Notes under the pieces: generated by a model
Databases searched by the model: none
The model's input: only the letters and a program-made list of their open reading frames with translations
What the model was told of the DNA's origin: nothing
Source of the DNA: a virus
Length of the DNA: 64,000 bases
Virus record (IMG/VR): IMGVR_UViG_3300018013_000001
Location: 6,028-70,027 of that record
Reading direction: 5' to 3' (one strand)
Part shown: in pieces, positions 1 to 64,000 of the stretch
Numbering within the stretch: position 1 is the stretch's first letter
Layout: each line of letters opens with the position of its first letter
Made by a program: the position numbers and the translations under genes

Positions 1-2
1 AT

Positions 3-482
3 CAGATCGTAGACTTCATCCTTTCCCACGAAGATCCCACGCTGAGTGGAAAAGTCACGACCGATACCGGGGGAGTCACGCGCTGGGGCATCGCCAGCCG
101 CTTCCATCCCGACCTGGATGTTGCCAACCTCTCTCTTCTGGACGCCCGCAGCATCTATCTTCAGGAGTACGTTCTGCCCTATCACCTCGACCAGCTTCGC
201 GATCAGGACGTTGCGAACGCCTGCGGCGACTGCTTGGTGAATCCGGGCTTGGGTGCCGGAGCCCACGTCATCCAGCAGGCGATCAACCTATACCGGGCCG
301 GGACTGTGATTGAGGATGGCGAGATCGGGCCAGACACGATCTCGCACCTCAACGGCTGCGCGGAGAACGACATCCTTCCCAGGCTTCGGGTTGCTCGGGT
401 GCTTTACTACATCAAGGACGTGCAGGCCAATCCCTCGTTGGCTGGAAACCTCACCGGCTGGCTGATTCGGGCCTGCGGTTGA
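3..482 (+). CDS. Endolysin, glycoside hydrolase family 108-like with C-terminal peptidoglycan-binding region (5' truncated by window edge)
   Basis: Frame 3 is open from base 3: QIVDFILSHEDPTLSGKVTTDTGGVTRWGIASRFHPDLDV...VIQQAIN...EDGEIGPDT...GWLIRA. The E...D-x-GG-x-T-x-WGI and DG-x-IGP-x-T motifs are typical of GH108 phage lysozymes. Confidence 0.8.
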   Translation, partial: QIVDFILSHEDPTLSGKVTTDTGGVTRWGIASRFHPDLDVANLSLLDARSIYLQEYVLPYHLDQLRDQDVANACGDCLVNPGLGAGAHVIQQAINLYRAGTVIEDGEIGPDTISHLNGCAENDILPRLRVARVLYYIKDVQANPSLAGNLTGWLIRACG

Positions 483-490
483 GCTCCAGA

Positions 491-2561: not shown

Positions 2562-2579
2562 TGCTTGCATGGAGGAGAT

Positions 2580-2744: not shown

Positions 2745-2851
2745 CTGTTGCGGCCTGCCTCCAATGGGGGCAGGAGCCGGAACGCTCAGCGTTCCCGCCC
2801 ACGGTAGGCGAGCACGATCAAAGCCACAGTCGGGCGACAAGGAGAACTCAG

Positions 2852-23360: not shown

Positions 23361-23452
23361 ACGTGTGAGCAGGCTCCTCCGTCGCGCTGAGTTCTCCCTC
23401 TCCTGCGGCGGAGTCCTGCTCGCCAATGACGAAACATGAAAAGGAGAATGAA

Positions 23453-31505: not shown

Positions 31506-32402
31506 ATGAAACGCCGCAATTTCTTCGCATCAATGTTGGGTTCTATCTCGTGTATCCCAGGATTTTCGTCCATCGCATCGGTTGTGCCGGGCAGTTCGCA
31601 GATAAGCCGAAAGGAGTTTCACGATCAATTCTTCAAAAACTCAAACGCCATAGCACTGAGTTTTGGCTCGGCTGACAATCGGCTGTATTCGAACTCCCGT
31701 GTTGAGCACAAGGATGAGAGCATGAAATTCACCAAGCTACGTTGTCGCCTAGCATTTGCCATTTGGAATCCTGCCCTGACTCACGTAGAGTTGGAGGGCA
31801 TTCACGTCGATGACGGGTCTTCGCCATTCATTAGTTTGGAGATAGGGCATTCTGCGGCAGTCTACAAGCAGGATGGAGACTATGACTGGCAGAATCTGGA
31901 TAACTTCGTTGATTTTAAAAGTGAGCACTGCCCTCTCAGGGATGCGAATTGGAGAATGTTCACACAAATTATTAAGGACTTTCAATCAAGGGGTTCTGCT
32001 GAAACTGGCAACCCTCTACAAATTCAGGCCCTCAACTGGATTCGATCAATCGAAGTCGGAAGTCTTAAGTTGGATCGAACCAACTTCTATTCTTGGCAGC
32101 ATGTGGTGAACGGGAAACCTGGATTGGATTACGGCGTTCAGGCCTTCTTCATTGGCCAGTCCTTGCACTACAAAGTTGACATCGAATACCGAGGGATTTC
32201 AGAAAAGCCAAAAATCTGTTGCTTTATGAGCGAACCTGATACTTCCAAAATGGATTTCATGGGCGGCTACGAGGAACTTTCTCCGAAAAGCAGGAGCACC
32301 GTAGAAGACTGGATTTCCGGCCACGAGAAATGGTATTTAGAAAGGCGTGAAGATGCACGTGAGTCTATGAATGATAACACTGCATCAGATGTGTTAAGCT
32401 AA
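31506..32402 (+). CDS. Hypothetical protein with twin-arginine-like N-terminus
   Basis: MKRRNFFASML; GAGGAG RBS; lower GC. Confidence 0.6.
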   Translation: MKRRNFFASMLGSISCIPGFSSIASVVPGSSQISRKEFHDQFFKNSNAIALSFGSADNRLYSNSRVEHKDESMKFTKLRCRLAFAIWNPALTHVELEGIHVDDGSSPFISLEIGHSAAVYKQDGDYDWQNLDNFVDFKSEHCPLRDANWRMFTQIIKDFQSRGSAETGNPLQIQALNWIRSIEVGSLKLDRTNFYSWQHVVNGKPGLDYGVQAFFIGQSLHYKVDIEYRGISEKPKICCFMSEPDTSKMDFMGGYEELSPKSRSTVEDWISGHEKWYLERREDARESMNDNTASDVLS

Positions 32403-44635: not shown

Positions 44636-46288
44636 ATGGGCAACTTCAAAACAATGGAGAGCTACCTCGTAGCTCTCGGATTTTCCGTAGATTCGGTCGG
44701 ATATTCCAAATTCGCCGCCGCTCTTCGTGACGCATCTTCGTTAGTTCAAAACCAAACATCTGGAATCGTGAAGTACATGTTGGGGGCTCAGACCGCCATC
44801 ACCGGTGGATTCGCCGCTGCGGGTGCCTCGGCTCTCGGCATAGTGGACAAGGTGGCGATGGCCGACCAGCAGTACCGGATGCTGGCGCTGCATATGTATA
44901 CCACCACGGGAGTAGCCCGAGAACTGAAGATGGCCACGGACGCGCTGGGCCAGCCGCTCGAAAACATCATTTGGGACCCGGAACTTTCCAGCAGATTCCA
45001 GCACCTCATCGAAATCCAGCGGGCGATGACTAATCAGTTAGGTTCGAGCTTCGAAACGCAGATGGTAAGAATCAGGGATTTGCGCGCTGAGTTCTCGTAC
45101 TTCGGCGTCGAATTGAAATACTTGACCATGAAGGTGGTCAGTGATTTTGGCAAAGTCCTCGGCATAGACATCGACCAGCTCCTCGTGAAGATGCAGGACT
45201 TCAACAAGTGGTTCGTCAACAATCTGCCTTGGATAACGAAATGGTTAGAGAGCAAGCTGAAGCCAGCGATGGTAGACATCAGAAGCGTTCTTTCCGAGAC
45301 TTGGGATCTGCTGAAGCTCGGGGCGGTAGATTTCCAGAATCTCATCGGTCTGCTTTCCGGCGATAAATCCATCGAGGGCACAGCAGCCAGCTTTGACAAG
45401 ATGGCAACTGCCATCCAGCGTTGCATGGGCTGGATAACAGATTTCACTAAGGCTGTGATACATGCGCAGGAAATCTTCCTACACCTCGTGAATGCTGGAT
45501 TGCTCGCAGCAGCGGGAAAATTCACTGATGCCTTGGCAGAATTGAAAGCGGCCAGCGGCCTGATAACCACAGGAAGCACAGCCGTAGTCGGCGCCGCGCT
45601 TGGTGGAGCAGTCGGGGCCGTAACTCCAATCCCTGGAGGAATGGTGGGCGGCGCCGCACTCGGAGGGTCTCTGGCGGGCGGGGCTGCGTCCCTCTATGGA
45701 ACTTTCAAGCATGGTGGATGGACGGAGTTGAAGGCCGCACTTGTTGCCCAGAACGCGCGCACATTGGCGATAGACGCTGGCATGAGGCTTGGCATTCAAC
45801 CTGATTTGATCTACCGGCAATGGCAGGAAGAGACCGCAAATTTTACCGCCATAAATGCCGCCAGCAATCTTGCGGGCATCAAACGTCAAGGAAAACTCGT
45901 GGATTTCCAGACGTTGAAGGATTTTGAGGATTACTACGTCGGCATCTTGAGTGGCAGCAGATATGCGGGACTGCAAAAGCCGTCGAATGTTCAAGATTGG
46001 GCCAAGTATCTCGCAAAGGGTCACTATTACACACACGGCAAAGACTTGCCCGCCACGCCAGAGGAGATGTTCAACTACGCCGCTGGAATGGGACGCTACG
46101 GAGGCATGGAAACTCGTCCCGTCATCATAAATCACAACAACTTCGACATTGACATAACTCATCCCGGGGAGAGCGGTCAACAAATCGGAGATGCGATAGT
46201 AAAGAAACTAAAAGAACATCAGGACAAGCAGTCTCAACGGGTCCAGGCGGATGCCCTGTCTACGTTCTGGGCTTCAGGAGGCCAGTGA
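44636..46288 (+). CDS. Tape measure protein with C-terminal lysozyme-fold (glucosaminidase-like) domain
   Basis: YLVALGF start, helical body, QWQEETANF...NLAGIK...F.TL.DF...Y...YYT. Confidence 0.8.
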   Translation: MGNFKTMESYLVALGFSVDSVGYSKFAAALRDASSLVQNQTSGIVKYMLGAQTAITGGFAAAGASALGIVDKVAMADQQYRMLALHMYTTTGVARELKMATDALGQPLENIIWDPELSSRFQHLIEIQRAMTNQLGSSFETQMVRIRDLRAEFSYFGVELKYLTMKVVSDFGKVLGIDIDQLLVKMQDFNKWFVNNLPWITKWLESKLKPAMVDIRSVLSETWDLLKLGAVDFQNLIGLLSGDKSIEGTAASFDKMATAIQRCMGWITDFTKAVIHAQEIFLHLVNAGLLAAAGKFTDALAELKAASGLITTGSTAVVGAALGGAVGAVTPIPGGMVGGAALGGSLAGGAASLYGTFKHGGWTELKAALVAQNARTLAIDAGMRLGIQPDLIYRQWQEETANFTAINAASNLAGIKRQGKLVDFQTLKDFEDYYVGILSGSRYAGLQKPSNVQDWAKYLAKGHYYTHGKDLPATPEEMFNYAAGMGRYGGMETRPVIINHNNFDIDITHPGESGQQIGDAIVKKLKEHQDKQSQRVQADALSTFWASGGQ

Positions 46289-49601: not shown

Positions 49602-50816
49602 ATGGCACCATACGCAGCTCCGAGCATAGGCCCTTCAGGTCTCACGATTCCAGGCTATGAAGATATTTTGAGCGACAACCTTCAAGGGTTTTTGAATCTG
49701 TTTGGCCAGAATCAATATGTTGGACGCGACAGCGCTATATTTCAGCTTCTTTCAATCCTGAGCTTGAAGCAGTCAGATACGATGGAGGCAGCCCAACTTG
49801 CATATAATCAGCGCTCGCCGCTCACGGCGGTCGGCGCGGGGCTGGACGGAATCGTGAAGTTGAACGGGATCGCGCGCGCCGCCTACACGTACTCGACGGC
49901 GCTTGAGACCATCACCGGCACGCCGGGAACGGTCATCGCTAACGGCTTCGTCCAGGACGTGAACGGCAACCAGTGGGCGCTACCCGGACTCGTGACCATA
50001 CCGGGAGGCGGAAGCATCGCCGTAACCGTGACCTGCACGACTCCTGGGAACGTGGTCGCGGAGCCGGGAGAGATCGCGGTCATCGCCACGCCGGTGGGCG
50101 GCTGGCTCACCGCGACCAATGCATCGGCATCCACGCCGGGGCTTCCCGTGGAGAGTGACTCGAAGCTCCGTGCGCGCCAGGCCATCTCGGTGGCCCTCCC
50201 GTCGAGAACGATGCTGGCCGGAACGGTCGCGGAGATCGCGGCGATTCCGGGAGTCACAAGATACAACGTGCTGGAAAACCCAACCGGATCGACGGACACT
50301 TATGGGAATCCCGCGCACTCCGTCACGGCCGTAGTGGAGGGTGGAACGAACCTGGCCGTCGCCACCGCGATCTATGACAACCGGGGAATCGGCTGCCTGA
50401 CGAACGGGAAGGTGAGCGGGTCATCGACGGCACAGACAGTGACGGTGAACGTGACGGATCCCAACACGGGCTACGTGATGGCGATCAGTTTCCTCACTCC
50501 GCTTTACGTGCCCATCTACGTGTCCCTTTCGGTTCACAAGCTGGCAGGGGCGACCAGCGCGACCCTGGCCGCGATCGTAACGGCGGTCGTGAATTATCTG
50601 AACAGCCTCCAGATCGGGGAGAGCGTGACGCTTTCGGCGCTGTACGCTGCGGCGATGGCCGTCACGCCGAATCTCTCCCAGCCGCTGTTCGCAATAGAGG
50701 CTTTGACGTTGGATACTTCGCCAACCCCAACGGGGACCACGGACATCGCCATCGCATTCCAGGAAGTCGCACAGGGAATAGACGATGGAGTTCACGTGAT
50801 CGTGACGAGCGTGTAA
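49602..50816 (+). CDS. Baseplate J-like protein
   Basis: TAVGAGLD, ESDSKLRARQ, PAHSV..VVEGG. Confidence 0.9.
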   Translation: MAPYAAPSIGPSGLTIPGYEDILSDNLQGFLNLFGQNQYVGRDSAIFQLLSILSLKQSDTMEAAQLAYNQRSPLTAVGAGLDGIVKLNGIARAAYTYSTALETITGTPGTVIANGFVQDVNGNQWALPGLVTIPGGGSIAVTVTCTTPGNVVAEPGEIAVIATPVGGWLTATNASASTPGLPVESDSKLRARQAISVALPSRTMLAGTVAEIAAIPGVTRYNVLENPTGSTDTYGNPAHSVTAVVEGGTNLAVATAIYDNRGIGCLTNGKVSGSSTAQTVTVNVTDPNTGYVMAISFLTPLYVPIYVSLSVHKLAGATSATLAAIVTAVVNYLNSLQIGESVTLSALYAAAMAVTPNLSQPLFAIEALTLDTSPTPTGTTDIAIAFQEVAQGIDDGVHVIVTSV

Positions 50817-51464
50817 ATGCCTGCTTTGCCATATCCGCAGACTTACGGGATCGGGGGCTACGGCTCTGGCCTTTATGGGAACCAGCCCATCGAGACGTTG
50901 CCCATTGGTTATTACCTGAGCCTGCTGACGTCGGAATACGCTCTGCCGAACTCTCCGAAGTGGAACGCCTTTCTTTACTTGCTTTTGAAAAAGTTCGACG
51001 ACGTGTCACAATGCCTCGTGCAGATGGACACGGCGTTCGACATCGACTTCGCGGTGGGAGTGCAGCTCGACGCCGTGGGAGTGATCGTGGGCCAGAGCCG
51101 CACCGTGGGATTCCAGCCGAGCGGCGGAGTGAGTCCGGTTCTCGATGACGCAACTTATCGAATCCTGCTCAAAGCAAGAGTAGCTCAGAACCAGTGGGAC
51201 GGAACCATCGGCGGGATGCAGGCAATCTGGCAGAGCCTTTTCCCTTCGGGCCGCATCATCATCGCCGACCAGCAGAACATGACGGCGGACATCCTGGTGA
51301 CCGGATCGTTCACGTCGATCATCGAGGACTTGATTGTGAACGGATACATCGTGCCCAGGCCCGAGGCGGTTTTGTATAACTTCATCTTCCCACACTTCCC
51401 GATGTTCGGCGCCGATCTGGACAATGCTTTCATTGCCGGGGCCGATCTCGGATATACGACGTAA
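50817..51464 (+). CDS. Baseplate wedge protein (DUF2612-type)
   Basis: FDID.AVGVQLD.VG.IVG.SR, LDD.TYR.LLKA....N.WDGT. Confidence 0.85.
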   Translation: MPALPYPQTYGIGGYGSGLYGNQPIETLPIGYYLSLLTSEYALPNSPKWNAFLYLLLKKFDDVSQCLVQMDTAFDIDFAVGVQLDAVGVIVGQSRTVGFQPSGGVSPVLDDATYRILLKARVAQNQWDGTIGGMQAIWQSLFPSGRIIIADQQNMTADILVTGSFTSIIEDLIVNGYIVPRPEAVLYNFIFPHFPMFGADLDNAFIAGADLGYTT

Positions 51465-51473: not shown

Positions 51474-52094
51474 ATGGGCAGCTCGAACTTCTTGCAACAC
51501 AATCCGACGCAGACCAACCAGGAATCTGACAGCTCATATACTGCGGAGTCTCTTCGATCTGGAGGAATCCCAGTAGACGCGATCCTTCCTTCGCCCTGGC
51601 TGAACAAAATCTGGTATCAATGCACGACCGCTGTCGCCGCATTGATGCAGATGATGGCCTCAAAGGGTTATGTTTTGTCGGACGCGAACCTGAACGTGCT
51701 GAGCGGAGTGCTTGCCAACATTTTGACCTGGGCGGATTTTCCGCTCGGCCTGCCCAAGATCACCGCAAAAGTCGATCTTGTAGGATACAGCGGATCAGTC
51801 ATAGCTTACCTGATCACACCTGCTGCGGCTGGATTCTACAGAGTGTCCGCTGAAGCATTCATCTATTCACCTACGGTCACTTCCACGTTGGCCGTTGAGA
51901 TCAATTGGACTCAGAACGGACAGGGACTAAGCGGCACGCTGATACCCTCGACGACGGTGGTCACATCCATCGCGGCTGCGCAAGGTGAGTGTGTCTTGTA
52001 TGGCGATGCCGGAATCCCTATTCAGTACGTGGTGAGTTGGTCTGGACCAGGATTAGATCATTATGACGTGCATATACGATTGGAAGCATTATAG
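51474..52094 (+). CDS. Short tail-fibre / baseplate anchor protein
   Basis: N-terminal S...NK...Q.T....AL.Q fibre-attachment-like segment; no signal peptide. Confidence 0.7.
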   Translation: MGSSNFLQHNPTQTNQESDSSYTAESLRSGGIPVDAILPSPWLNKIWYQCTTAVAALMQMMASKGYVLSDANLNVLSGVLANILTWADFPLGLPKITAKVDLVGYSGSVIAYLITPAAAGFYRVSAEAFIYSPTVTSTLAVEINWTQNGQGLSGTLIPSTTVVTSIAAAQGECVLYGDAGIPIQYVVSWSGPGLDHYDVHIRLEAL

Positions 52095-52114: not shown

Positions 52115-55100
52115 ATGAATCTGTCGAGAAAAACCTCTTGGCTTTCACTGTGGTGCATGCTGTTGTGCGTTTCTGCTTTTGCTCAAGGGCCTGTCCTGAC
52201 GACCGTCGCTTACACTTACGCTCGACCGGACGGAAGTTTACCGTCAGGCACGATCAGCATAATGAATCCTCCCTTCACGAGCCCGGACGGGTTCCCAATC
52301 GCGGCAGCGAACAAGACGGCGCAGTTCTTCACGGGAGCGATTTCAGTTCAACTGGTCCCCACTCAGGGTGGAAGTCCTGACAGGCAGCTCTACACCGTGC
52401 TGATAACTCCGCAAGGTAATCCGATGGTGCAGGAATTTTGGTCGGTTCCGCAGTCTGCAGGAGCCGTGAATCACGCAGCCGTGATCTCATACCAGACTCC
52501 CCTGCCGAATCCCTTGATAGGCATACCGGAGGGCGGTACAGGAGCGAGCACGGCTGCTCAGGCGCGTGCTAACCTCGGCATCACCAGCGGAAGCGTCACG
52601 GGATTCAGCGCAGGCAATCTACTTCCTCTTTTCAACTCCTCCGTCGCCACCCCGTCCAGTACGCCAGCCCTGAGCTTCTCTCTTCTGACGACCGAGCCAG
52701 ACTCGATTTTCGGCAATTTTTCAGGAGCGACCGCCCGTCCTGCTTATGGAGGGGGATTGATTTCCTGCGGCGATTCCACTCACGCATTGGGATATTTGAA
52801 CCATGTTTTTGAATGTCAATCTCTGTCGTCTGGCACTCCGCTTCCAGCGAACACCGATCCTTTAGCCGCCGATAGTTTCGGTGCTGCCATCGCCTCGAAA
52901 ACCATCGTCAACGTGATGAACTACGGTGCGAAGTGCGATGCCACGACTGACGACAGCCCAGCGTTCACGGCGGCGGTGGCTGCCATGCCTGGAGGAACGC
53001 CTTATCCAGCACTCAACACGGTTGGAGGTGGCATACTTCTCATTCCGGCCAGTCCCACACCCTGCAACCTGGTCTCTGCGAGGCTGGCAATCACCAAGGC
53101 CAACGTCAAGGTATCGGGGTACGGTGCTTCACTGCTTTGCACGGTTGCCGATGACTGCGTGACGCTGGGCGATCTCACCAACGTCAATTCAGGGATCAAC
53201 AACATAACCATCGAAGGTCTCGCCATCGAGCCGGGCGTGGGCTCGGTTGGGCATTCTGCGATCCGCGACAACGCGCAGGGCACCCGCATCGTGGATGTCA
53301 GCGACGTTTATAACTACACCGGATGGCCAGCGCACTACGGCTTCAACCACTTCATCGAGAACGATGACGACTTCTTTCAGCAAGTCGAGCATCTTTACAT
53401 AAGTGGCGGCACGCTGCGCTGCGACCCGACCTTCTGCGGCTCCTACATTTGGGGGCCGGGGCCGTTTGCTACAAATGCCGGGATCACCTATCTGTCGGGT
53501 GGATTCAATATTTCGCCAGAATGCTCTGGCAATGGGATTGACTGGAACAACAATAACACTCTCAGTATCAGGGATGGGGTGATTGAGGGATATAACCAAT
53601 TTGCTATTCGGGCTTGGGCTAGCAATAACCCTAGCGCCCTTAGTGTGAATCACGTCTACATGGAACGTGGAAGTTGCACCAACCCCTTCGGTAATGTGGG
53701 TAGTGCTGGGGTCATAACTTACAGCCCAACCACTTGGGTTGGCAGTCAACTCGGCGGCGGGAGCGTGCCGGTGTTCACGCATTCCGGCTCGGGCTCAGGC
53801 ACCAACTATCAGTATTACATCGTGGGCAAGAATGCTGGTGGCGCTGTGACCGTTCCGATGAGCGCCGGATACATCACCAATGCTCTGGTGGGCGCGTCTG
53901 ACTCGATCACAACCAACTGGATACATTATGGAGCAACCTCCTACACTATGCTCCGGCAGGAGGGATACGGAGTCATAACCGCAGCTCCATACGGCACGGG
54001 AAATTGGGCCGTAGCTGTCGATCTAGCGGCATCGAGCGCGTGCAACGCTGCGGGCCTTTGCACCTTCGTTGATACGGTGGCGAGTCCGTCGTCTTACACG
54101 GTTAGCACCAGTCCGACCTATTCGCCCACCATCACATTTTGGGGCGGTGCGATTGTTCTTGCTGGTAGCGGCGCAACCTACTCGGGTAGTCCTCTTTCAT
54201 TGGGTGGGATTTTCGTAAGTCCCAACGCTCCCAACGCCGGTCAAATTAACCTGACCGCAGGACCAACCACAGCTTACTATCAAGACCCTGAACCTTTCAG
54301 TCCTGTTCGCATTAATGTCCCCCCAGGTTCAGGAGTCCTGTATCAGCCTCAAAACGCAATCCTGATGGACCAGGGTTATGGGGCGGTTTTAGGGAGTAAA
54401 AAAGGTCTAATTAATTTGGGGCAGGCGTCCAGAGCCTATACTGTAGACACGATTACACTCGGCGACAGTAATCCCAACAAAACGTCCGCATCTATCAGTG
54501 GGCGACCTGCCAGTGATGTTGGAGATGCCGCTGTATGCGTGGATCACGCCGGTACTTGTTTTAGAGACCCGATAGCCCTTACTGAGTACATTAATAGCCT
54601 CGGGAATAATGTAAGTTGGTTGGAGCGGCTGACCGCAAGTCTCAAGATATTCAATGTGCCCTTGACGGCTTTTTCGGTGGCTCAGCTTGTTGCGCCGTTT
54701 TGCGGTTATCTTGCCGATATTCCAACTGGCGGGATGCTCCTCCCTGGCCACCAGTACTGCTATATTGCTACGACTCTGGATTACTTAGGCGAAAGTTATC
54801 ATGACCGACCGGAAGGTTGCATCACGACAGCTAATGACGGGAACAGTACGCATCAAGTCCAAGCGTACTTCAAATCAAATGAAGGGGCCACTAGGGGGTA
54901 CAATGTCTACGGTCGCGAGACGGGCACCGAGCAGTTGATGACCCCATCGCATATTGCCAACACTTGGCCAGACTATTATTTCATCTTTACCGATACTGGT
55001 TCAGTGACCCCCAGCGGGGCGATGCCGACGAAGGATACGACGGGGCAGATTTCGGCTACGCAGTTTAATGGTCGCGTTGCCCATGGAATCAGTTTCACGA

Positions 55101-55432
55101 TGGGTGACCCCGTCAACAATACGGCGCTGACAACCTCGGAAGTCCAGTACGTGACTGTGCCCTTTGCCTGCACGATTCAGGCTTACAACCTCGCCATTGA
55201 TGCAGGCACGATCACGGTTAAATTCTGGAAGGTAGCAAGCGGAACTGCGATCCCCACGGCCTCGAACTCGATCAACACGGCTGGGGTTTCGATTGCAGGT
55301 GGAACTGCCATCCATAGCGGCACACTGACCGATTTCACCACCACCGATGTTGTGACTAATGACATCATGGCAATGGCGGTAACGGCTGTTGCGACCGCCA
55401 AATTCGTGAATGGTGTTCTTCAATGCCAGTGA
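52115..55432 (+). CDS. Tailspike/fibre-like protein with pectate-lyase-like beta-helix and N-terminal signal peptide
   Basis: SWLSLWCMLLCVSAFA|Q; GGTGASTAAQARANLG fibre motif; VNVMNYGAKCD..TDDS.AF beta-helix cap. Confidence 0.7.
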   Translation: MNLSRKTSWLSLWCMLLCVSAFAQGPVLTTVAYTYARPDGSLPSGTISIMNPPFTSPDGFPIAAANKTAQFFTGAISVQLVPTQGGSPDRQLYTVLITPQGNPMVQEFWSVPQSAGAVNHAAVISYQTPLPNPLIGIPEGGTGASTAAQARANLGITSGSVTGFSAGNLLPLFNSSVATPSSTPALSFSLLTTEPDSIFGNFSGATARPAYGGGLISCGDSTHALGYLNHVFECQSLSSGTPLPANTDPLAADSFGAAIASKTIVNVMNYGAKCDATTDDSPAFTAAVAAMPGGTPYPALNTVGGGILLIPASPTPCNLVSARLAITKANVKVSGYGASLLCTVADDCVTLGDLTNVNSGINNITIEGLAIEPGVGSVGHSAIRDNAQGTRIVDVSDVYNYTGWPAHYGFNHFIENDDDFFQQVEHLYISGGTLRCDPTFCGSYIWGPGPFATNAGITYLSGGFNISPECSGNGIDWNNNNTLSIRDGVIEGYNQFAIRAWASNNPSALSVNHVYMERGSCTNPFGNVGSAGVITYSPTTWVGSQLGGGSVPVFTHSGSGSGTNYQYYIVGKNAGGAVTVPMSAGYITNALVGASDSITTNWIHYGATSYTMLRQEGYGVITAAPYGTGNWAVAVDLAASSACNAAGLCTFVDTVASPSSYTVSTSPTYSPTITFWGGAIVLAGSGATYSGSPLSLGGIFVSPNAPNAGQINLTAGPTTAYYQDPEPFSPVRINVPPGSGVLYQPQNAILMDQGYGAVLGSKKGLINLGQASRAYTVDTITLGDSNPNKTSASISGRPASDVGDAAVCVDHAGTCFRDPIALTEYINSLGNNVSWLERLTASLKIFNVPLTAFSVAQLVAPFCGYLADIPTGGMLLPGHQYCYIATTLDYLGESYHDRPEGCITTANDGNSTHQVQAYFKSNEGATRGYNVYGRETGTEQLMTPSHIANTWPDYYFIFTDTGSVTPSGAMPTKDTTGQISATQFNGRVAHGISFTMGDPVNNTALTTSEVQYVTVPFACTIQAYNLAIDAGTITVKFWKVASGTAIPTASNSINTAGVSIAGGTAIHSGTLTDFTTTDVVTNDIMAMAVTAVATAKFVNGVLQCQ

Positions 55433-56472
55433 ACGGCTTACTCAGAAAATTCGCTTTCGGGTTATGCGTAGTGCTGTGCTGCCTACCTGCCCACGCGGGC
55501 TGGACACTCAAAAATTCCACAATCACGGCGGGAAGCACAGCGAATCCTTTCGTCATGGGCGCCTTTGCTCATCCCCTTACGCCGGGGAGTATCATCATCG
55601 TGAGTTTCGGGGCCAATGGGACGAGTATCCCAGTCCCAACCGATGACGCTGGGAACACTTACTATGACTATGGCGGAGGTCCTGTTCAGGATCATTTGAC
55701 GCTCTATGATTACAACTTTTATGCTTTGAACACTCACAGCACAGCCTTAAATAAAATCTACATCTCCAACAGTGGCGGGTCCTTCATTTACGGTAGCGTC
55801 GGTTCAGAGTGGACGGGTGGCGTGCCATCCAGCCCAGTTGATGTTTATGCCATTACTGCATTGGGGATCGCGGGCAGCGGCACTGATAATGCTTCGACGG
55901 CATCCGCTGACACCACTCAAAAGGGCGATTTGATTTACGGCCACGTTATTTGTTGGGGCGGTCCTGCCCATTCGGCTGGAACAGGTTTTACCTACATCGG
56001 CAACAATAACTATCCAGGAGAGTACTTGATTCAATCCTCACTGGGAACAGTGGCCGCAACTTGGACAGTGGGTTCTGGAGACTACTACGGAGCGATCATG
56101 GTAGCGTTTAAGCAGGCTCCCATTGTCAGCCTTTCGGCTTCTACTTTGGGCTTCGGAGCTTGGCCAGTCGGCGTCACAAGTTCTTCCCACACGGAAACGA
56201 TTACGAATACCGGCATCGTGGATTTGGTCATTTCGACAGTTACGATCACGGGCACGGATTTTGGAGACTTCTCGAATGTAGCCGATACGTGCAGCGGCGA
56301 GACCGTCACGTCCGGCAATACCTGCGCGGTTAGCGTGACGTTCACGCCATCTGCGATCGGAAGCCGCAGTGCTTCGCTGAATTTTGCCGACAATGCCAGC
56401 GACACTCCACAGGCAGTGGTTTTGGCGGGAACGGGTGGAGTGGCCAACAGTGGCCACAGCGGGATCATGTAG
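55423..56472 (+). CDS. Exported beta-sandwich protein with C-terminal ASH/Ig-like domain
   Basis: FGLCVVLCCLPAHA|G signal; L.FG...VG.TS....TITNTG...C.V.VTF.P...G.R...L...DNA...PQ.V.L.GTG. Confidence 0.75.
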   Translation: MPVNGLLRKFAFGLCVVLCCLPAHAGWTLKNSTITAGSTANPFVMGAFAHPLTPGSIIIVSFGANGTSIPVPTDDAGNTYYDYGGGPVQDHLTLYDYNFYALNTHSTALNKIYISNSGGSFIYGSVGSEWTGGVPSSPVDVYAITALGIAGSGTDNASTASADTTQKGDLIYGHVICWGGPAHSAGTGFTYIGNNNYPGEYLIQSSLGTVAATWTVGSGDYYGAIMVAFKQAPIVSLSASTLGFGAWPVGVTSSSHTETITNTGIVDLVISTVTITGTDFGDFSNVADTCSGETVTSGNTCAVSVTFTPSAIGSRSASLNFADNASDTPQAVVLAGTGGVANSGHSGIM

Positions 56473-56492
56473 CATGATATGATGGAGGTGTT

Positions 56493-59400
56493 ATGATGCG
56501 TTTCAAAAAACTTGGCTGTCTCTTGATCCTTGGTTTATTCCTTGCAATTCGTGCTCCCATCCCAGGATTGTCACAGGGAAACTCGTGCGGCATCTCCGGC
56601 GCGTGCAAGGGAAACATCACGACCAACGGTGACGCTGTGATCCTTCCCGTCCCCCAGGACACCGCGACCATCGTTGTGACCGTGGCTGGCACATGGACAG
56701 GAACCCTTCAGTTTCAGCAAAGCTCGGACAGCGCCTCGACCTGGCACTCCTCGAGCGGGAATCCACAGCCTTCAGGAACAGGGGCAACGTTCACCACGGC
56801 CAACGGGCAGTGGCGCTTCGTCGGTTCTGGACTCACAAACTTTCAGGTCATAGCCTCCGCAACGATCAGCGGAACGGCTAACGTAACCATAACTCCATCT
56901 AAGGGATCCGCGGCATCTGGAGGATCCGGATGCTTCTCCGGGGGCGATCTGACAGGATGCTCGCCAAACCCTACCGTGGCCAACGCGAACGGGGTGCCCC
57001 TTCCGACGTTGGCCGGGCAGTCTGGATATTTGCTGGACACCAACGGGACTCTCTCGCTGAACGCTGGCATCGCGGTAGCTCATAATCTTCTTTCAGCCAC
57101 GCACAGCGACACCACTCCGGCCGCCGTCGAACGCGGCGCCATTATCACCGGTCAGGGTGTCAATCCAACTTGGGCAAAACTTCTGGCAGGTGTTCAATAT
57201 CAAAGTCTCGTGATGGGCGTGGCTGAACCCGGATGGGGCGCGCTTGATCTTAGTCAAGCGGCGGCGGTCACGAACAACCTCGGTACGGGGCATGGAGGAA
57301 CCGGCGCCGCCACTGCTGCTGCGGCCTTAGTCAATCTCTTGCCGGCTGGAACGAGAGTTGGTGACATGCTCTATTGCACAACCTATGCGGCTGGTGCTTG
57401 CTCGGCATGGACGCTGCTCGCGGGGAATACCACGAGCACCGCTTGGCTGCAAGAAACCGCTGGCGGCGTCGCGTCCTGGACCGTACCTCCGGGGGCTGCG
57501 CCTGCTGGCTCTGGCAGCGAGGTGCAATACCGTTCCAGTGCCTCGGCTTTCGGGGCCGTCACGGGATCGAGCTTCAGCGCAGGGGCGCTGACACTTCCCA
57601 AAATCATTGGGACCGCGTCTACCACGGCAGCGGCCGCATTCAACATCCCAAGCGGCGTGGCTCCAACAACCGGACTAGGCACTGGAGACCTCTGGAATCT
57701 TTCCGGCATCCTGCAATTCTACGATGGCACTAACACGCAGTCGGTGGCTACGATTCAAACTCCAAGCGTGAACGGCAATTATGCCTCGTTCAGTGGCACC
57801 GGTGGGCTGCTGCAAAACAGCGGATATGCTGTGGGCAATGCCGTAAACTTCAACGGGGCTGGCGTTTCCATCAACATCCCCGTACTGGCAACGAATGGTT
57901 CAGGCCAGCTTGTGGCATCCACGGGGCACCAAGTATCAGTTCCTCTGGCTTGCGTGGCCGGTGGGGGCTCGCACACGGCCTACACCTGTACGACCGCGCC
58001 GACTTTTGCCCCTGTTGCCGGAGATGAAATTCTATTCAAGGCAGATGTCGCCAATACGGGGGCCTCAACGCTGGTTGTCAATGCTCAGGCGGGAACGCCT
58101 GCGATTGACAAGCAAGGGGGAGCTACAGCGCTTTCGCCTAATGACCTGTTGGCTGGCCAGTATGTATTCATGATTTTTGACGGCACGAACTGGACGATGC
58201 AAGGACAATCAGGAAACGGTATCGGCGGGGCTCTCCAGGTTTCAGCGAATACGCTGAATAATACGAACACCACCTCCCAAGTGTTGATTACAGGCGGCAA
58301 TGATGCTTCTTCAGCCGGGACGGTTGGGCCGCTCAATCTGCGTGGGGGAAACCAGACCGGCACGGGTGGAGCAAGTTCGCAGGGTGGCAGCGCTTGGTTA
58401 CATGGCGGCAATAACGCTGGAACCAATGCAGGTTCACAGGCGGGGAACGTCGAAATCATAGGCGGTGAGTCTACGGCAGGAGGAAAGCAGGGTCTCCAGG
58501 TGAGTGGCGCATGGTTCGCCAAGGGTGTAGGAACTTCGACACCGTGGAACCTGCAATGCCTGACTACGGCGATGACCGTAAATGACTGCGGGGCATCGCC
58601 GGGCAATTGGCTGGGAATTGCCGCTCTGGTACACACAAGCTCGGTGGAAGTAATCTTCCCGACTGCCGAAACGCTCGTCAACGCGAGTGCTGCGGTGACG
58701 CTGGGGGACACAGTCTGCGCAGGATCGACAGCAGGTCAAGTTACGGATTCCGGCGGGACATCTACCTGCACCGCTACGCAAGGCTCTCAGCTCGGCGTCG
58801 TCATTGCGACGAGCGGTACGTGGACCCTGCCTGACGGGACTACATTTACACCTACCACGACCTTGCCACTCATTGCAGTACAGACCGCAGTGCGGGCATT
58901 GAACATGACAGGCGCTACCGACACGATTCTAATGGGTAACGATGCGGGCGTCGGGTCCCTTCCAGCCTATAAGACTGGTCCTTCAGGTGGGACTACCGGA
59001 TGTGCGGGTGCTACCGATACGCCGACCTACAACACGTCAACCCATGCTTGGGGATGCCACCAGATCACGCCAGGTACGGGCACTGTCACAGCCTCGGGAA
59101 CCCCCGCTCAGTACGATTTCCCCTACTGGACCACCGCGACCAATTTGACGAAGATCACCGCACCCACCACCAAGGGCAAGTTTTCTGTCGGCTACAATCT
59201 CCCCACCGACGCTGCGGCGGCTCCCAGCGTCATGCAGGTTGGCTATGGTCCCCCTCGTGGCGTAACAGGGACGACAAGCACAGATACAGTCTTATTCACC
59301 GACTGTAATAGCGGTATCCTATTTCAAACATCAGTCGCAGTGGGCGAAACTCTGCCTACCGCGACGACGCTTGAGAATGCGGCCTGCAACATTCAAATGG

Positions 59401-60974
59401 ACAACCGCACCACTGGTTCTAATACAGCGGTGACGGTCACGCCCGCGACCTGGCAAATCAGCAAGAACGGGGGCACGCCGGGGGCGACGCTTACCATAGA
59501 CCAGGGCCAATCGTGCTTCGTGTACGTAATCCCGACAGGCGCTGGGTGGGATGCCAACTGCCACAATGCTACGCTTGTCGCGGGGACAGGCATCGCTTTG
59601 ACACGCGCTCCTGATACTTTGACTATTGCCAATACAGGTGTCACGAGCGTAGCGACTGCGGCTCCTCTGAGTGGTGGGCCGATTACTTCGACAGGCACTC
59701 TTTCTTGCCCCACCTGCCTAACCGGTCCCAACGTGAACACCGTGGGTGGGATCATCGGGACGGATTTTGTACAAGGTGTACAGGCTGCTTCCAGATTCTA
59801 TGCTTGGTTCGCCAGTGGGCAAGCGAGCAATCAGCAGTTTGTTTCTCCTTTGACGGTGTGGCTGTCAAACTTTACGGCGCTTGTTTACGCAGTTCCCAGT
59901 CCTAGTAATTACTCTTCACTCCAAACAGGGCTTGCCGTGACAACTGGCAATACGGTTAGTCTTCCCTATTGGACGGTTCCTGGAAGCACGGCTGCGGGTG
60001 CAGTTGCTTCTAGCGCAGATCAGGGACTCCGCCCGTTGCTGGTTCCGCAGGGCTTGGCAATTTCTATACCGGCTAACGGTGTCGGTGGACCGCTTTTATC
60101 GAGCTACACTGCCGAAATATTGGGTTCGACTGCACAGATTCTCGGCACCAATCTCAATGCGGCCACGGTGGGGACTGGCGCTATTGTCTACACTTCATTT
60201 TCTCAATCTACTACTCCATCAGCTACCGAAACAACCGTGGAAGTTCCAGTTCCGTGGACTTTAGGTGGTACGGCGAAAAATCTTTGTTGGTATCAGAGTA
60301 CGGCTAATGGAGCAGGTGGAGCACTTACGGTTACACTTCGGCAGGGAGTGGGCGCGGCTGGAGCTTTGGGGGATACAACTCTGACGCAAAACTCACCCTT
60401 GAGCATGGGTTTGAACAACGCCTATTGTGACTATTACGCAACCACAAGTCATAGTGTGGCACTTGCACAAGGGGATCGAATTACGCTCGGACTCGTCAAC
60501 GGAAACGCCTCTGCCGCATCCGGCGCTGTCGAGGGGTTTTCGATGCAGGTTGATCCCAACGGCCTTGCTAATGGTTGGATCATTTTCGGTCTGAACAGTT
60601 CGACGTTGCCTAATGCCTCCGCTACCTATCTCTGTCCCTTTACAAATCGCCAAACCACCACGATAACCTCGGCTTCGGCTGGGATGCCAGATGCTAGGGT
60701 TGCCGTGAATCTCATTGGCTATTGTACCGCTGCTCCGGGCACCGAACCGGCTACGTTCACGCTCTACAAAAATGGCTCTCCCACCAGTATCGTTGCCACG
60801 ATCCTTACGGCCTTTAGTGCTCCAGGGGAAATTTCTGATTTGTATGCGAGCACTGGTCATTCAGTGGCCTACGCCGCTAAAGACATATTCACATTGAAAT
60901 ACAACCAACTAGCGACAGGTACGGCACCGACATGCACAGCGTTCTCTTTAGAGACTGCTTCGGCAGCGGAGTAA
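56493..60974 (+). CDS. Very large Gly/Thr/Ala-rich fibre/adhesin-like protein with signal peptide
   Basis: MRFKKLGCLLILGLFLA; GGTGAATAAAAL and TGVTSVAT...LSGGPITSTGTL fibre-type motifs. Confidence 0.7.
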   Translation: MMRFKKLGCLLILGLFLAIRAPIPGLSQGNSCGISGACKGNITTNGDAVILPVPQDTATIVVTVAGTWTGTLQFQQSSDSASTWHSSSGNPQPSGTGATFTTANGQWRFVGSGLTNFQVIASATISGTANVTITPSKGSAASGGSGCFSGGDLTGCSPNPTVANANGVPLPTLAGQSGYLLDTNGTLSLNAGIAVAHNLLSATHSDTTPAAVERGAIITGQGVNPTWAKLLAGVQYQSLVMGVAEPGWGALDLSQAAAVTNNLGTGHGGTGAATAAAALVNLLPAGTRVGDMLYCTTYAAGACSAWTLLAGNTTSTAWLQETAGGVASWTVPPGAAPAGSGSEVQYRSSASAFGAVTGSSFSAGALTLPKIIGTASTTAAAAFNIPSGVAPTTGLGTGDLWNLSGILQFYDGTNTQSVATIQTPSVNGNYASFSGTGGLLQNSGYAVGNAVNFNGAGVSINIPVLATNGSGQLVASTGHQVSVPLACVAGGGSHTAYTCTTAPTFAPVAGDEILFKADVANTGASTLVVNAQAGTPAIDKQGGATALSPNDLLAGQYVFMIFDGTNWTMQGQSGNGIGGALQVSANTLNNTNTTSQVLITGGNDASSAGTVGPLNLRGGNQTGTGGASSQGGSAWLHGGNNAGTNAGSQAGNVEIIGGESTAGGKQGLQVSGAWFAKGVGTSTPWNLQCLTTAMTVNDCGASPGNWLGIAALVHTSSVEVIFPTAETLVNASAAVTLGDTVCAGSTAGQVTDSGGTSTCTATQGSQLGVVIATSGTWTLPDGTTFTPTTTLPLIAVQTAVRALNMTGATDTILMGNDAGVGSLPAYKTGPSGGTTGCAGATDTPTYNTSTHAWGCHQITPGTGTVTASGTPAQYDFPYWTTATNLTKITAPTTKGKFSVGYNLPTDAAAAPSVMQVGYGPPRGVTGTTSTDTVLFTDCNSGILFQTSVAVGETLPTATTLENAACNIQMDNRTTGSNTAVTVTPATWQISKNGGTPGATLTIDQGQSCFVYVIPTGAGWDANCHNATLVAGTGIALTRAPDTLTIANTGVTSVATAAPLSGGPITSTGTLSCPTCLTGPNVNTVGGIIGTDFVQGVQAASRFYAWFASGQASNQQFVSPLTVWLSNFTALVYAVPSPSNYSSLQTGLAVTTGNTVSLPYWTVPGSTAAGAVASSADQGLRPLLVPQGLAISIPANGVGGPLLSSYTAEILGSTAQILGTNLNAATVGTGAIVYTSFSQSTTPSATETTVEVPVPWTLGGTAKNLCWYQSTANGAGGALTVTLRQGVGAAGALGDTTLTQNSPLSMGLNNAYCDYYATTSHSVALAQGDRITLGLVNGNASAASGAVEGFSMQVDPNGLANGWIIFGLNSSTLPNASATYLCPFTNRQTTTITSASAGMPDARVAVNLIGYCTAAPGTEPATFTLYKNGSPTSIVATILTAFSAPGEISDLYASTGHSVAYAAKDIFTLKYNQLATGTAPTCTAFSLETASAAE

Positions 60975-60975
60975 A

Positions 60976-63810
60976 ATGCGAAAACTGATCCTCATCCTCG
61001 CTTTTCTAGCTTTCCCGGTCCTGGGCTGGGCGACAGCCTGCGACGTGCCGAACTCCGCTTGCTATGTGCGTGCGGGAGCCACCGGGACAGCCGACGGGAG
61101 CGACTGGACGAATGCCTACACCGTGCTTCCGGCCACGCTGACGCGGAGTTACACCTACTATTTGGCCAGCGGGACGTATCCCGAGTACTACGCGAACACG
61201 GCGAACTCAGGAACCACAACGATCACCATCCAAGCGGCGACCACAGCCAGCCACGGGACGGCGGTGGGCTGGTCGAGCGCCTACGCCACGGACGTTTCAG
61301 GCCCAGCGATTTTCAACGCCAGCACGGGAGGCACAGGGCTCAGCTTCAATAACAACTCCAGCTATTGGAACGTGACCGGAGCCGGAACCTACACGGGCAT
61401 GGGCTGTGGTCCTGGTGGTGCGGGCTGCGGTCTCAAGATTGACGGGAGCGCTTGCACCTCCGCGTACTGCTACAACTTGGGACTCTGCCTGGCCGCCTAT
61501 CACGGCTGGACTTCCTGCCCGCATGACATCAGCGTGAGCTATCTCGAAATCCTTGGCGCTGGGTTCGCCAACGCGGACACCCACGTAGACAGCAACGTCC
61601 ACATGGATTCGGACGGATGGACAAGCAGCAATGGAGGCGGGAGCAACTTTACGCTCTCGCACCTGTATCTCCACGGTTCGAGCGGCGGTCCCTTTTTCAC
61701 CGAGTTCGTCACCGGCATCACTCTCGACCACTCCTACATTACCGGCAACGTCTCGACCTCCACCCACCACGGCGAAGCCTGGGCGGACATGGGGTCGAGC
61801 AACGTCACGATCAGCAACGATAACTTTGAGGATGCAGAAGGCTCAGGCTTCATTGTGGAGCTTGACCGGGGCGGCTGCACGGCGTCCTGCATCGCTAATA
61901 ACTGGTTGATGTACGGGGACATTTTCTATTACGACAATGGGAACACTCGAAGTTGCACCACTGCGCCGTGCAACACCGGAATCGGCGATGGCGTGATCGA
62001 CTGCATCAACGGGATGATCTGCACCGGATGGGTGATCGAACAGGACACTTTTGCGAATCTGTATGGGATCAATGCCGCGCTATGCGAGGACTGCACCGCC
62101 GAGGGCAACGTAGCCTCTACCTGGACCGTCCGAAACAACCTCTGGTACGGCAACACGAATGGCGGTATCGAGATGGGCTCCGAAGAACACAAATGCGCGG
62201 CCTGCACGGTGACAGAGGACTACAATTCGATTTTAGGGTACAACACCGGAACCTTGGACACAGGGTTTTTCAGCGGGGCGCACGACGTTATCCTTGTGGC
62301 GACGCCGAGCAGCCCGTTTGTGTCTTGGACAGCTAATCCGCCCAATTTTCACCTTGTTGGGGACAATGCGGACTGGAATGGAGGCGTCACACTTACCTCT
62401 CCATACAATATTGATCCCGATGGAGTAGTACGTGGGATCAGTGGATCCTGGGACCGAGGAGTTTTCCAGCTTACTGGAGCCCCAGCGGGTTGTGGACCAG
62501 GAACCGATCAAAGTCTGTGCGGCAATGTGGGCGACCCCTATGCGGGTGGGGGGGCGCCGACGCCAGATGCCACGATTGCTGCGTGTGGCGCGCTGACTCC
62601 GGCAAGTCCCGGTTACGTTTACCGCGTGACGGCGAATATTGGAAGTGACGCCACCGCAAATTGTATCACTTGGTCTTACACGAACTCGTTTGTGCTCGAT
62701 TTGTACGGACACACAGTCACGGGGATGATCCACGGAACCAACTCCCCTTACGGCCTGACCATAATGAACGGCACGGTGAACTGCAATTCCGTGGCGACCG
62801 GCTGCGTGGATGTCGGTCAGGATGCGACGGCGGCAGCCTATGACAAGATTCACCACCTGACGATCAACCAGGCGGCCCTCGGCGGGAGGATTATCAATTT
62901 CAACCAGAACAATCTCTACTCCCCTGTGGCTACCCGGTATATCCAGGTGTACAACGTCCAAGGCACGCTTCCCAATGCGAGCGAGGATGGCAACCGCGCG
63001 TACTTCGTTTGGGTAAACGGCGGCAACACCGTCCCGGCAGAAGTATGGAATTCTACCGTTTCCCCCGGTGCGAATCTGAATGCCTTCCAGGGAATCGCCA
63101 TGTATGCGACGCCGGGGAGTCTGGTGCGGAACAATTACATCATCCTGCCACACCCAACCTACGACACGGGTGTGTACGACCCGCCCCGCGCCATCCTGTT
63201 CGACTGCGAGGGGAAGGTGGGAAGCCCGTGTGGCGGCAACGAGGCAGCGTACAACCAGATCGTCGCAGATGTGAGCCGAGCCATCCGAGTCAGGGCGGAA
63301 ACTGGAGACCTGATCCACGATAATCTCCTGCAAGATTGTAGGTTTGCGGCCATAAGCGGTGGCTGCATCAACATCGGGGACACCGACATTCAGGGCGAAG
63401 CAAGTTCGGCGGAGGTTTACGCTAACACCATCGAATTGAACGATGGGAATGGGATCAACCTGGGCGGAGACAGCCACAGCACGGCAAACGTTCACGGCAA
63501 TACCGTCACCTGTTACCTGGGAAGTTGCAGCAGCGCTCTCTGGTTTGCCATGACGCAGATAACCGAGTCGAGCTTCACGCACCCCATTGCTGGCCCGACC
63601 TTGACGGTTAATAACACAGACTTTCCTGCTGGATGGGGAAGCAGAAATGCGGTCTTATCGTGCGGGCCAGCAGGCAACCCGAGTTACGTCTGCGGCGTTG
63701 CGGATGACACCGCGAGCGTGATCTCCTGCAATACCGGTGTGGTGGTCGGAAACGGAAACAAGACATCGGATTGCTTTGCGCCCATAAATTTGCGGGCGGT
63801 ACCGCATTAG
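60976..63810 (+). CDS. Exported Cys-rich parallel beta-helix protein
   Basis: MRKLILILAFLAFPVLGWA signal; YV.AGA.G..DGSDWTNA, NN-rich beta-helix repeats, D.DG..R....WDRG.F motif. Confidence 0.75.
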   Translation: MRKLILILAFLAFPVLGWATACDVPNSACYVRAGATGTADGSDWTNAYTVLPATLTRSYTYYLASGTYPEYYANTANSGTTTITIQAATTASHGTAVGWSSAYATDVSGPAIFNASTGGTGLSFNNNSSYWNVTGAGTYTGMGCGPGGAGCGLKIDGSACTSAYCYNLGLCLAAYHGWTSCPHDISVSYLEILGAGFANADTHVDSNVHMDSDGWTSSNGGGSNFTLSHLYLHGSSGGPFFTEFVTGITLDHSYITGNVSTSTHHGEAWADMGSSNVTISNDNFEDAEGSGFIVELDRGGCTASCIANNWLMYGDIFYYDNGNTRSCTTAPCNTGIGDGVIDCINGMICTGWVIEQDTFANLYGINAALCEDCTAEGNVASTWTVRNNLWYGNTNGGIEMGSEEHKCAACTVTEDYNSILGYNTGTLDTGFFSGAHDVILVATPSSPFVSWTANPPNFHLVGDNADWNGGVTLTSPYNIDPDGVVRGISGSWDRGVFQLTGAPAGCGPGTDQSLCGNVGDPYAGGGAPTPDATIAACGALTPASPGYVYRVTANIGSDATANCITWSYTNSFVLDLYGHTVTGMIHGTNSPYGLTIMNGTVNCNSVATGCVDVGQDATAAAYDKIHHLTINQAALGGRIINFNQNNLYSPVATRYIQVYNVQGTLPNASEDGNRAYFVWVNGGNTVPAEVWNSTVSPGANLNAFQGIAMYATPGSLVRNNYIILPHPTYDTGVYDPPRAILFDCEGKVGSPCGGNEAAYNQIVADVSRAIRVRAETGDLIHDNLLQDCRFAAISGGCINIGDTDIQGEASSAEVYANTIELNDGNGINLGGDSHSTANVHGNTVTCYLGSCSSALWFAMTQITESSFTHPIAGPTLTVNNTDFPAGWGSRNAVLSCGPAGNPSYVCGVADDTASVISCNTGVVVGNGNKTSDCFAPINLRAVPH

Positions 63811-63818
63811 GAGCAAAC

Positions 63819-64000
63819 ATGAAACGACTTCTACTTTTGGTTGCTAGTGTTTTCACAGTTTCAGTGGTTGCCGCTGCGCAAGCGCCAACCCAACTGGCCG
63901 TCTCTCTGCAATTCATTTATGGCTCCTGGCCAGTTTGCACGGCCACGGTGACGACAAATTGCATCGCCGGGTTCAACATTTACGATACGACCACGACAAA
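63819..64000 (+). CDS. Exported protein, possibly Fn3-like (3' truncated)
   Basis: Manual translation MKRLLLLVASVFTVSVVAAAQA...CTATVTTNCIAGFNIY; AGGAG RBS. Confidence 0.65.
   Translation, partial: MKRLLLLVASVFTVSVVAAAQAPTQLAVSLQFIYGSWPVCTATVTTNCIAGFNIYDTTTT

Follow-up and report, generated by a model that had tools for sequence, protein, structure and literature searches.

Do the outermost tail proteins of a tailed phage pass through the export machinery of the host before they join the particle? Canonical tailed-phage fibers and tailspikes have no signal peptide, and they fold and assemble in the cytoplasm. The question is raised by the distal end of the 64,000-nucleotide stretch analyzed here (the window), which covers positions 6,028 to 70,027 of the IMG/VR virus record IMGVR_UViG_3300018013_000001 and is the final 64,000 bases of a contig totaling 70,027 bases. 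There, a leaderless fiber stub is followed by a run of open reading frames (ORFs), O1–O6, each beginning with a leader of the general secretory (Sec) type. With a probability of roughly 0.45, we read O1–O6 as late-operon tail-fiber- or tailspike-type proteins of a virulent myovirus, glycan-binding or glycan-cutting, that would be exported by Sec and dock at lysis. The stub and the run are as follows (lengths in amino acids, aa).

51474..52094, + strand: leaderless fiber stub, 206 aa, with a good Shine-Dalgarno motif
52115..55432, + strand: O1, 1105 aa, leader-bearing; beta domain, linker motif, beta-helix and C-terminal module
55423..56472, + strand: O2, 349 aa, leader-bearing; beta-sandwich (27-232) and Ig-like domain (PF22544, E 8.9e-08)
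56493..60974, + strand: O3, 1493 aa, leader-bearing; long Gly/Thr/Ser-rich fiber-like protein
60976..63810, + strand: O4, 944 aa, leader-bearing; two beta-helix-type modules
63819..64000, + strand: O5, leader-bearing; 5' part in the window, 133 aa when whole; the gene is completed at the contig start, via the terminal repeat
Genome positions 431-3166, outside the window: O6, 912 aa, leader-bearing, sixth of the run

The record is a complete myovirus genome of ~69.9 kb from soil, with a contractile tail. A 123-bp exact direct repeat stands at both contig ends, IMG/VR classes the record under direct terminal repeats with a completeness of 100%, and O5 runs on into the contig start because the contig is circular or terminally redundant. 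An earlier note on this DNA had allowed that the leader-bearing genes might be ordinary host genes beyond a prophage boundary. The terminal repeat and the completeness rule this out, and O1–O6 sit within the complete phage genome.

The N-termini of O1–O6 all show basic residues, an uncharged hydrophobic core and a small-x-small site, with cut sites predicted by eye at AFA↓Q (O1), AHA↓G (O2), GLS↓Q (O3), GWA↓T (O4), AQA↓P or AAA↓Q (O5) and SRA↓Q (O6). The earlier note had placed leaders of this design, with mostly AxA-type sites, on five ORFs, starting at 52115, 55423, 56493, 60976 and 63819. All five are present at those starts, and the full run comprises six consecutive ORFs once the 912-aa O6 is added. 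Leaders were called with a rule-based caller of our own, not SignalP, which follows the rule for Sec and signal peptidase I (SPase I): a positive n-region, an uncharged hydrophobic h-region and small residues at −3 and −1. It flagged 8 of the 84 genes in the genome, six of them forming the unbroken run O1–O6 and the other two being a 128-aa ORF at 23426 and a lysis-cassette membrane protein. Shine-Dalgarno-like motifs lie ahead of the leader-including starts of O1, O3, O4, O5 and O6, and O2 begins before O1 has ended. By eye, none of the six N-termini shows a twin-arginine motif. The Cys that follows the O4 leader opens a conserved C-x6-C loop, which agrees better with AxA cleavage than with a lipobox. 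These features support the assignment of Sec/SPase I-type leaders to O1–O6.

The DUF2612 baseplate protein encoded just upstream of the stub was used as a handle to fetch 47 related viral loci, in which large ORFs were defined as those of at least 300 aa behind the first fiber gene and upstream ORFs as those of at least 100 aa. Among 13 non-redundant close relatives (52–70% identity), a leader was called on 17 of 19 large ORFs behind the stub versus 8/139 upstream ORFs; among 8 distant relatives with other fiber types, it was called on 0/7 large ORFs versus 12/99 upstream ORFs, the two upstream counts giving the background rate of the caller. The leaders recur in relatives despite shuffled protein bodies, which supports their being real features under selection, and their sequences vary while the n-h-c design is kept, as in export signals. 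The number and kind of leader-bearing ORFs differ widely between relatives. The co-occurrence of short anchors with signal-bearing fibers envisaged in the earlier note was also found, as the gene after the stub is leader-bearing in 6/12 cases for short stubs and in 2/17 for long stubs with their own receptor domain. Library homologs were flagged as leader-bearing in 31/53 cases for O1 and 8/11 for O4. Read by eye, the unflagged ones mostly look 5'-truncated, starting within or just past the leader, or over-extended, and about five of the O1 homologs look genuinely leaderless.

Conservation of the mature leader-bearing proteins begins at the predicted cut itself, and two conserved heads occur there. 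The first, TPNIGLQ..NWQVP, has a leaderless form, a 127-166-aa protein directly after the stub in 10 relatives, and a leader form on O6 and on two large ORFs of the related locus L018. Alignment shows the leader as a clean N-terminal addition of 20-24 residues that stops where the leaderless homologs start, an indirect hint of translocation and cleavage. Searched against 1.84 billion proteins, a profile of the TPNIGLQ head gave 991 representatives at E ≤ 0.001. In a census of the best 150 of the 991, 76 start at the head: 57/76 have a called leader (median 646 aa, up to 2562 aa), 5/76 an N-terminal extension without a leader call (median 405 aa) and 14/76 are leaderless (median 132 aa). Members of the family match PHROG 'tail fiber protein' families, and a Pfam scan of 13 of them gave no family and a single DUF4183 match only; a suspected likeness of this head to Pfam DUF2793 found no support in that scan. 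The second head, INP..QINWP, includes a Cys pair and stands at the front of 11 leader-bearing ORFs from 10 related loci, where it marks the first leader-bearing ORF. Baseplate or stub genes lie upstream in 19 of 24 metagenome loci found via the TPNIGLQ head, the remaining five being short or this phage's own O6, and in six of the 24 a leader-bearing large fiber stands directly behind the stub. In 19/21 loci, the gene after the small leaderless head protein is a leader-bearing ORF. Receptor-binding proteins attached to the virion usually combine a conserved head with an exchanged body. One library protein, P0137 (474 aa), reads as a stub fused in frame to a leader and the TPNIGLQ head, with the leader internal; either a stop codon or frameshift was missed or the fusion is genuine.

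Cysteines set the exported candidates apart to a moderate degree. The description 'Cys-rich' in the earlier note holds in part, as Cys content is 2.08% in O1–O6 versus 1.05% in the virion module and only O4 (3.6%) is clearly high; the paired Cys that it had also described were found as close pairs. Of the 19 mature Cys in O1, 16 show conservation in at least 8 of 15 homologs, and the close pairs include 342/348, 436/441, 643/649 and 808/815. The 25 mature Cys of O3 are mostly in close pairs, and the 34 Cys of O4 form 17 close pairs. The mature Cys count is even in 53/57 leader-bearing representatives of the head family and in 17/18 large leader-bearing ORFs of relatives, the odd one being cut by the locus end. 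Leader-bearing relatives in all have even counts in 70/75 cases versus 46/82 for leaderless virion-module ORFs (Fisher p = 5e-8). Within the head family, Cys makes up 1.69% of leader-bearing and 0.50% of leaderless proteins. Such even counts suggest folding in an oxidizing compartment.

The presumed docking partner is the product of the ORF at 51474, which the earlier note had called a fiber anchor. It is indeed leaderless and short, and is better described, from its family alignment, as a shortened form of the ordinary leaderless tail fiber of this clade. The stub family has a conserved N-terminal region of ~95 residues and a beta-rich domain; 7/14 stub relatives carry PF21882 Gp53-like_C, which is not present in the 206-aa stub of this phage, and one has a Gp34 trimerization domain. 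The AlphaFold2 (AF2) model of the stub had a mean predicted local distance difference test (pLDDT) score of 44 and was unusable. A complex prediction of three stub chains with three copies of O6 residues 23-120 gave no answer (score 0.00) and is evidence neither way.

Both phage-fiber motifs that the earlier note had reported, in O1 and O3, were found. O1 consists of the leader, an N-terminal beta domain, the fiber linker motif, a parallel beta-helix (~260-720) and a C-terminal module of ~110 aa. Over residues 1-290 it shares 83% identity with a protein whose body differs, and its center is common to ~20 beta-helix proteins. In the AF2 blocks, confident only over residues ~260-720 (mostly pLDDT 80-93), this region is a right-handed parallel beta-helix, with Foldseek matches at E 6.6e-07 to 1e-03 to Geobacillus virus E2 ORF18, GH55 glucanases and RbmB, and also to the Sf6, AM24, Det7, Fri1 and CBA120 tailspikes and to WceF (6tgf). 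The modeled O1 beta-helix thus resembles both phage tailspikes and secreted glycanases. No Pfam match was obtained for O1 at E ≤ 0.01, PF12708 included, and PF12708 is precomputed on 6/53 O1 homologs. The C-terminal module (window 55085-55432, two conserved Cys) shows 60-83% identity across more than 20 otherwise unrelated fiber-like proteins; such conservation is unusual for a fiber tip, and the module could serve in assembly or as a common tip for binding glycans.

O2 is a conserved neighbor of O1-type genes, with the same pairing in loci L049 and L050. Its beta-sandwich is unnamed, and O2 has matches in the ESM Atlas. The C-termini of O2-type proteins are alike, ending in ..SGHSGIM here (window 56440-56472) and in ..SGHSAIM and ..PGHGTIF in the O2-like ORFs of L050 (10426-11547) and L049 (3483-4394), respectively. 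Residues 436-800 of O3 are 49% identical over 417 aligned positions to a 2162-aa leader-bearing ORF of L018. O4 and three standalone homologs share a ..AVPH C-terminus. O6 has the fiber-type head, a second pectate-lyase-like start and a weak CBM_4_9 match below the Pfam cut-off. Pfam and PHROG searches gave no family for O1, O3 and O4, a sequence search of solved structures with O1, O3, O4 and O6 found nothing significant, and O1 and O3 had no tblastn match in 50,697 phage records.

The run resembles canonical fibers and tailspikes in its position behind the baseplate wedge genes (as for P22, Sf6, CBA120 and Acinetobacter tailspikes, and for P2- and Mu-type fibers behind baseplate J and I), its beta-helix body, its conserved heads with shuffled distal modules and its PHROG 'tail fiber protein' matches, and differs in the Sec-type leaders and paired Cys found on all of its distal proteins. 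The closest cultured parallel is Cellulophaga phage phi18:3 (NC_021794), a podovirus of another phage family with a Bacteroidota host, known here from its record annotation. Three consecutive proteins, gp085, gp086 and gp087, just upstream of its endolysin and lysis genes all have leader-like N-termini and are annotated as virion or tail proteins from tandem mass spectrometry (MS/MS), and 0/9 of the other MS/MS structural proteins has a leader. Unlike the proteins described here, the three contain only 0, 1 and 3 Cys, and no sequence relation to O1–O6 was seen, though no search was aimed at one.

On the favored reading, O1–O6 would be translocated unfolded into the periplasm, where the leader would be cut, exposing an N-terminal Gln in most, and the proteins would fold, probably trimerize and form local disulfide loops. 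They would accumulate until lysis by holin, endolysin and spanin merged the compartments, whereupon the conserved mature N-terminal modules would dock on the leaderless stub mounted on a baseplate built in the cytoplasm. The virion would thus receive its distal receptor-binding gear last. The data show the leaders and their conservation, the Cys pattern, the fiber or spike character of the proteins, their synteny with the stub and their phage setting. Export, cleavage, disulfides and, above all, docking are inferred, and the steps differ in strength. Export by Sec is very likely. Export together with oxidative folding, as proposed in the earlier note, appears well supported because the leaders are conserved across the clade and Cys counts are even; the attachment to virions that it also proposed is plausible as a step after lysis. 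Docking is favored because conserved heads are combined with shuffled bodies, because the heads are homologous to leaderless stub-adjacent proteins, because the genes stand in the classical fiber position and because the leader-bearing proteins of phi18:3 are annotated as virion or tail proteins. Free fibers join T4 particles spontaneously in vitro, which makes the docking step physically plausible. Still more tentatively, the last tail step may be extracytoplasmic throughout this widespread soil-myovirus clade, and by analogy in other lineages: Sec-exported, disulfide-locked fibers would snap onto the stub at lysis, particles inside the cell would be adsorption-incompetent, and the fibers would be hardened for acidic, protease-rich soil.

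Several points weigh against this reading. The leaders were identified by our own rule set rather than by SignalP, and for this phage export, cleavage and virion association all rest on the sequence. Adsorption does not obviously require the exported proteins, given that 7/14 stub relatives already have a complete receptor-binding domain and no leader. Four of the six proteins of this phage have an odd mature Cys count, and the disulfide network in the tail of phage Milano forms without export (PMC10811340, in excerpt). Modules of O4 and O2 resemble those of ordinary bacterial enzymes that are secreted, and neither protein has a fiber-type head. The MS/MS detection in phi18:3 could reflect co-purifying free protein. 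Finally, the trait belongs to a lineage and is not a rule of the host phylum, because the fibers of the cultured Acidobacteriota phages Tunturi_3 and Tunturi_4 are leaderless.

The main rival is that O1–O6 are exported and never particle-bound, acting as free periplasmic or released glycan-binding and depolymerizing proteins. They would strip or mask exopolysaccharide, capsule or lipopolysaccharide receptors from within, before and at lysis, so that progeny escape the matrix and are not lost on debris, and the leaderless stub or its long form would be the true fiber. We consider this somewhat unlikely. Leaders and Cys pattern are equally expected, O4 and O2 modules are common to secreted bacterial multidomain enzymes, half of the stub relatives bring a receptor domain of their own, and leader-bearing ORFs are highly variable in number and kind. 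The glycanase-like beta-helix folds fit as well, including the match to Pantoea stewartii WceF (PDB 6tgf), an exported trimeric tailspike-like beta-helix that acts on the exopolysaccharide of its own producer; by the excerpted account, WceF differs from O1 in being encoded by a bacterial gene in an exopolysaccharide cluster, with a twin-arginine translocation (Tat) leader and no fiber-type head, and is not viral (PMC7949094). Free enzymes, however, need no fiber-type heads, long shafts or fixed position behind the stub, a leader-bearing gene adjoins receptor-less short stubs more often than long ones, and the virion proteins detected by MS/MS in phi18:3 include leader-bearing ones. Free and virion-bound roles are not exclusive.

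As its alternative, the earlier note had offered decoration of the host surface, serving receptor masking or lysogenic conversion. Such display at the envelope of an infected cell or lysogen, with superinfection exclusion as a further conceivable role, is disfavored by the gene content and layout of the genome. The + strand holds nearly all long ORFs and every identified gene. Matches to PHROGs and Pfam identify a DnaB-like helicase, large terminase, portal, head protease and major head protein, as well as tail sheath, baseplate hub, a spike N-terminal domain, Baseplate_J, DUF2612 and a GH108 endolysin. Around the run these include the following.

49602..50816, + strand: baseplate wedge protein (Baseplate_J; PF04865, E 4.2e-12; phrog_6 baseplate wedge subunit, E 5.5e-54)
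50817..51464, + strand: DUF2612 baseplate protein (PF11041, E 4.5e-30), the handle for the 47 related viral loci
1..482 of the window, + strand: 3' part of the GH108 endolysin gene (PF05838, E 6.6e-10), which closes the lysis cassette after O6

The genes from the stub through the leader-bearing run are separated by gaps of 1-87 nucleotides (nt), O1 and O2 overlap, and O6 is followed by small membrane proteins and then the endolysin. The earlier note had seen no separate promoter for the fiber genes. Sigma-70-like promoters are not enriched (9 found versus 8.9 expected), and shuffled sequence has more terminator-like sites (16.4) than the 7 counted here; both scans are uninformative. Leader-bearing envelope proteins encoded next to tail genes are known in lambda (Lom and Bor) and T5 (Llp), and leaders with glycan-binding-type domains would suit such a role. 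Against it, no tyrosine or serine recombinase (PF00589, PF00239), and so no integrase or resolvase, was found in the complete genome, which makes lysogenic conversion unlikely; the genes are packed tightly in a late operon with no promoter enrichment; devoting ~15 kb, or a fifth of the genome, to such a role would be costly; and no outer-membrane anchoring or sorting signal was recognized. The fiber-head profile matched 0/401 bacterial genomes of one phylum, a weak negative, as an empty answer shows little. We give envelope display little credence.

The remaining rival, that the N-terminal segments do not export functional protein, being unused in the host or bypassed by an internal-start leaderless isoform assembled in the cytoplasm, is improbable: O6 has an in-frame GTG three codons past the predicted cut with GAGG 12 nt upstream, and some O1 homologs have a Met directly at the cut, where gene callers started, but in O1, O2 and O5 the several codons around the cut include no start codon, the candidate internal starts of O3 and O4 and an internal Met of O6 lack a Shine-Dalgarno motif, homologs do not conserve a start codon right behind the cut, the leaders vary and retain the n-h-c design, and the even Cys counts fit an oxidizing compartment. 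Dual-start isoforms were rejected as a general solution on these start-site data.

The host of the phage is probably a member of the Acidobacteriota, because the O1 tail module matched contigs of a Bryobacteraceae metagenome-assembled genome (MAG) and a Terriglobia MAG and because one O1 homolog is named from Candidatus Sulfotelmatobacter; the matched MAG contigs could be binned phage. On the Terriglobia contig an O1/O2 pair lies inside a different tail module, and the trait therefore crosses phage types. Leaders as a rule for all Acidobacteriota phages were rejected on the leaderless tail and fiber genes of two cultured phages of Tunturiibacter: Tunturi_3 has 0 leader calls in 28 coding sequences, and in Tunturi_4 the structural genes have no leaders and the two calls fall on small proteins near the lysis genes.

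Gln stands at +1 of the cut predicted by eye in 4/6 ORFs here, and 46/57 leader-bearing representatives of the head family have a small-x-small↓Q site. This is reminiscent of the Q-rule for SPase I substrates (excerpts of PMC5837995 and PMC10653852). The second paper, from 2023, states in its excerpted text that the rule is exclusive to Bacteroidetes and describes phages of P. gingivalis that apply it to secreted proteins of unknown function. The host links of the present phage, by contrast, are to Acidobacteriota MAGs. Because the rule is described as exclusive to Bacteroidetes, either Acidobacteriota may hold a weaker form of it, or many members of the head family may infect Bacteroidota. 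In 400 kb of one Terriglobia MAG (G001; 20 × 20 kb, L078-L097), Gln was the commonest residue at +1, in 7/23 strict AxA leaders, a count from a crude caller and a small sample. Two early-region ORFs, 13928-14590 (+, 220 aa) and 23426-23812 (+, 128 aa), have leader-like N-termini with Gln after the likely cut, as judged by eye, and no Pfam family.

To our knowledge, tailed-phage particles are taken to be built wholly in the cytoplasm. A full-text literature search, which did not cover supplementary virion proteome tables, found no paper on Sec leaders of tailed-phage fibers or spikes, and there is a substantial chance that such leaders mark a new assembly route. Phage proteins that use Sec include signal-peptide and signal-arrest-release (SAR) endolysins, the T4 antiholin RI and filamentous coat proteins (excerpts of PMC8878798, PMC8385771 and PMC4823517). 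Like O1–O6 they are phage-encoded and depend on the host Sec system; unlike them, those described in the excerpts are lysis regulators or enzymes, or belong to membrane-assembled non-tailed virions, and none is a tailed-phage fiber or spike. The present analysis adds a complete genome with six such genes, the stub-plus-exported-fiber architecture, a library-wide census and the Cys parity. Leaders and paired Cys of this kind occur on hundreds of related phage proteins. If fibers and spikes with export signals do form so large and conserved a class, either the last assembly step crosses compartments or there is an unrecognized arsenal of exported, fiber-derived glycan enzymes, and receptor-binding proteins of this class would need periplasmic or oxidizing expression to fold. 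Leader-bearing carbohydrate-active enzymes (CAZymes) scored as metabolic in soil viromes may be host-recognition parts; in the excerpted text of one CAZyme catalog, signal peptides are given for 5% of prophage CAZymes, with tail fibers excluded (PMC13507307). Leader style, such as Gln at +1, may help host prediction, and cultured phages such as phi18:3 allow direct testing.

Two further ORFs lie upstream in the window. Between the portal and a Mu-F-like head protein, a 298-aa ORF (31506-32402, +) begins MKRRNFF..., a twin-arginine-like motif followed by a hydrophobic stretch, has no Pfam family and is possibly a Tat-exported protein within the head-gene block. At the tape-measure position, a 550-aa protein (44636-46288, +) with a weak tape-measure PHROG match (E 0.0075) contains a glucosaminidase-like segment (E 1.5e-05, below the Pfam cut-off), a possible wall-degrading domain.

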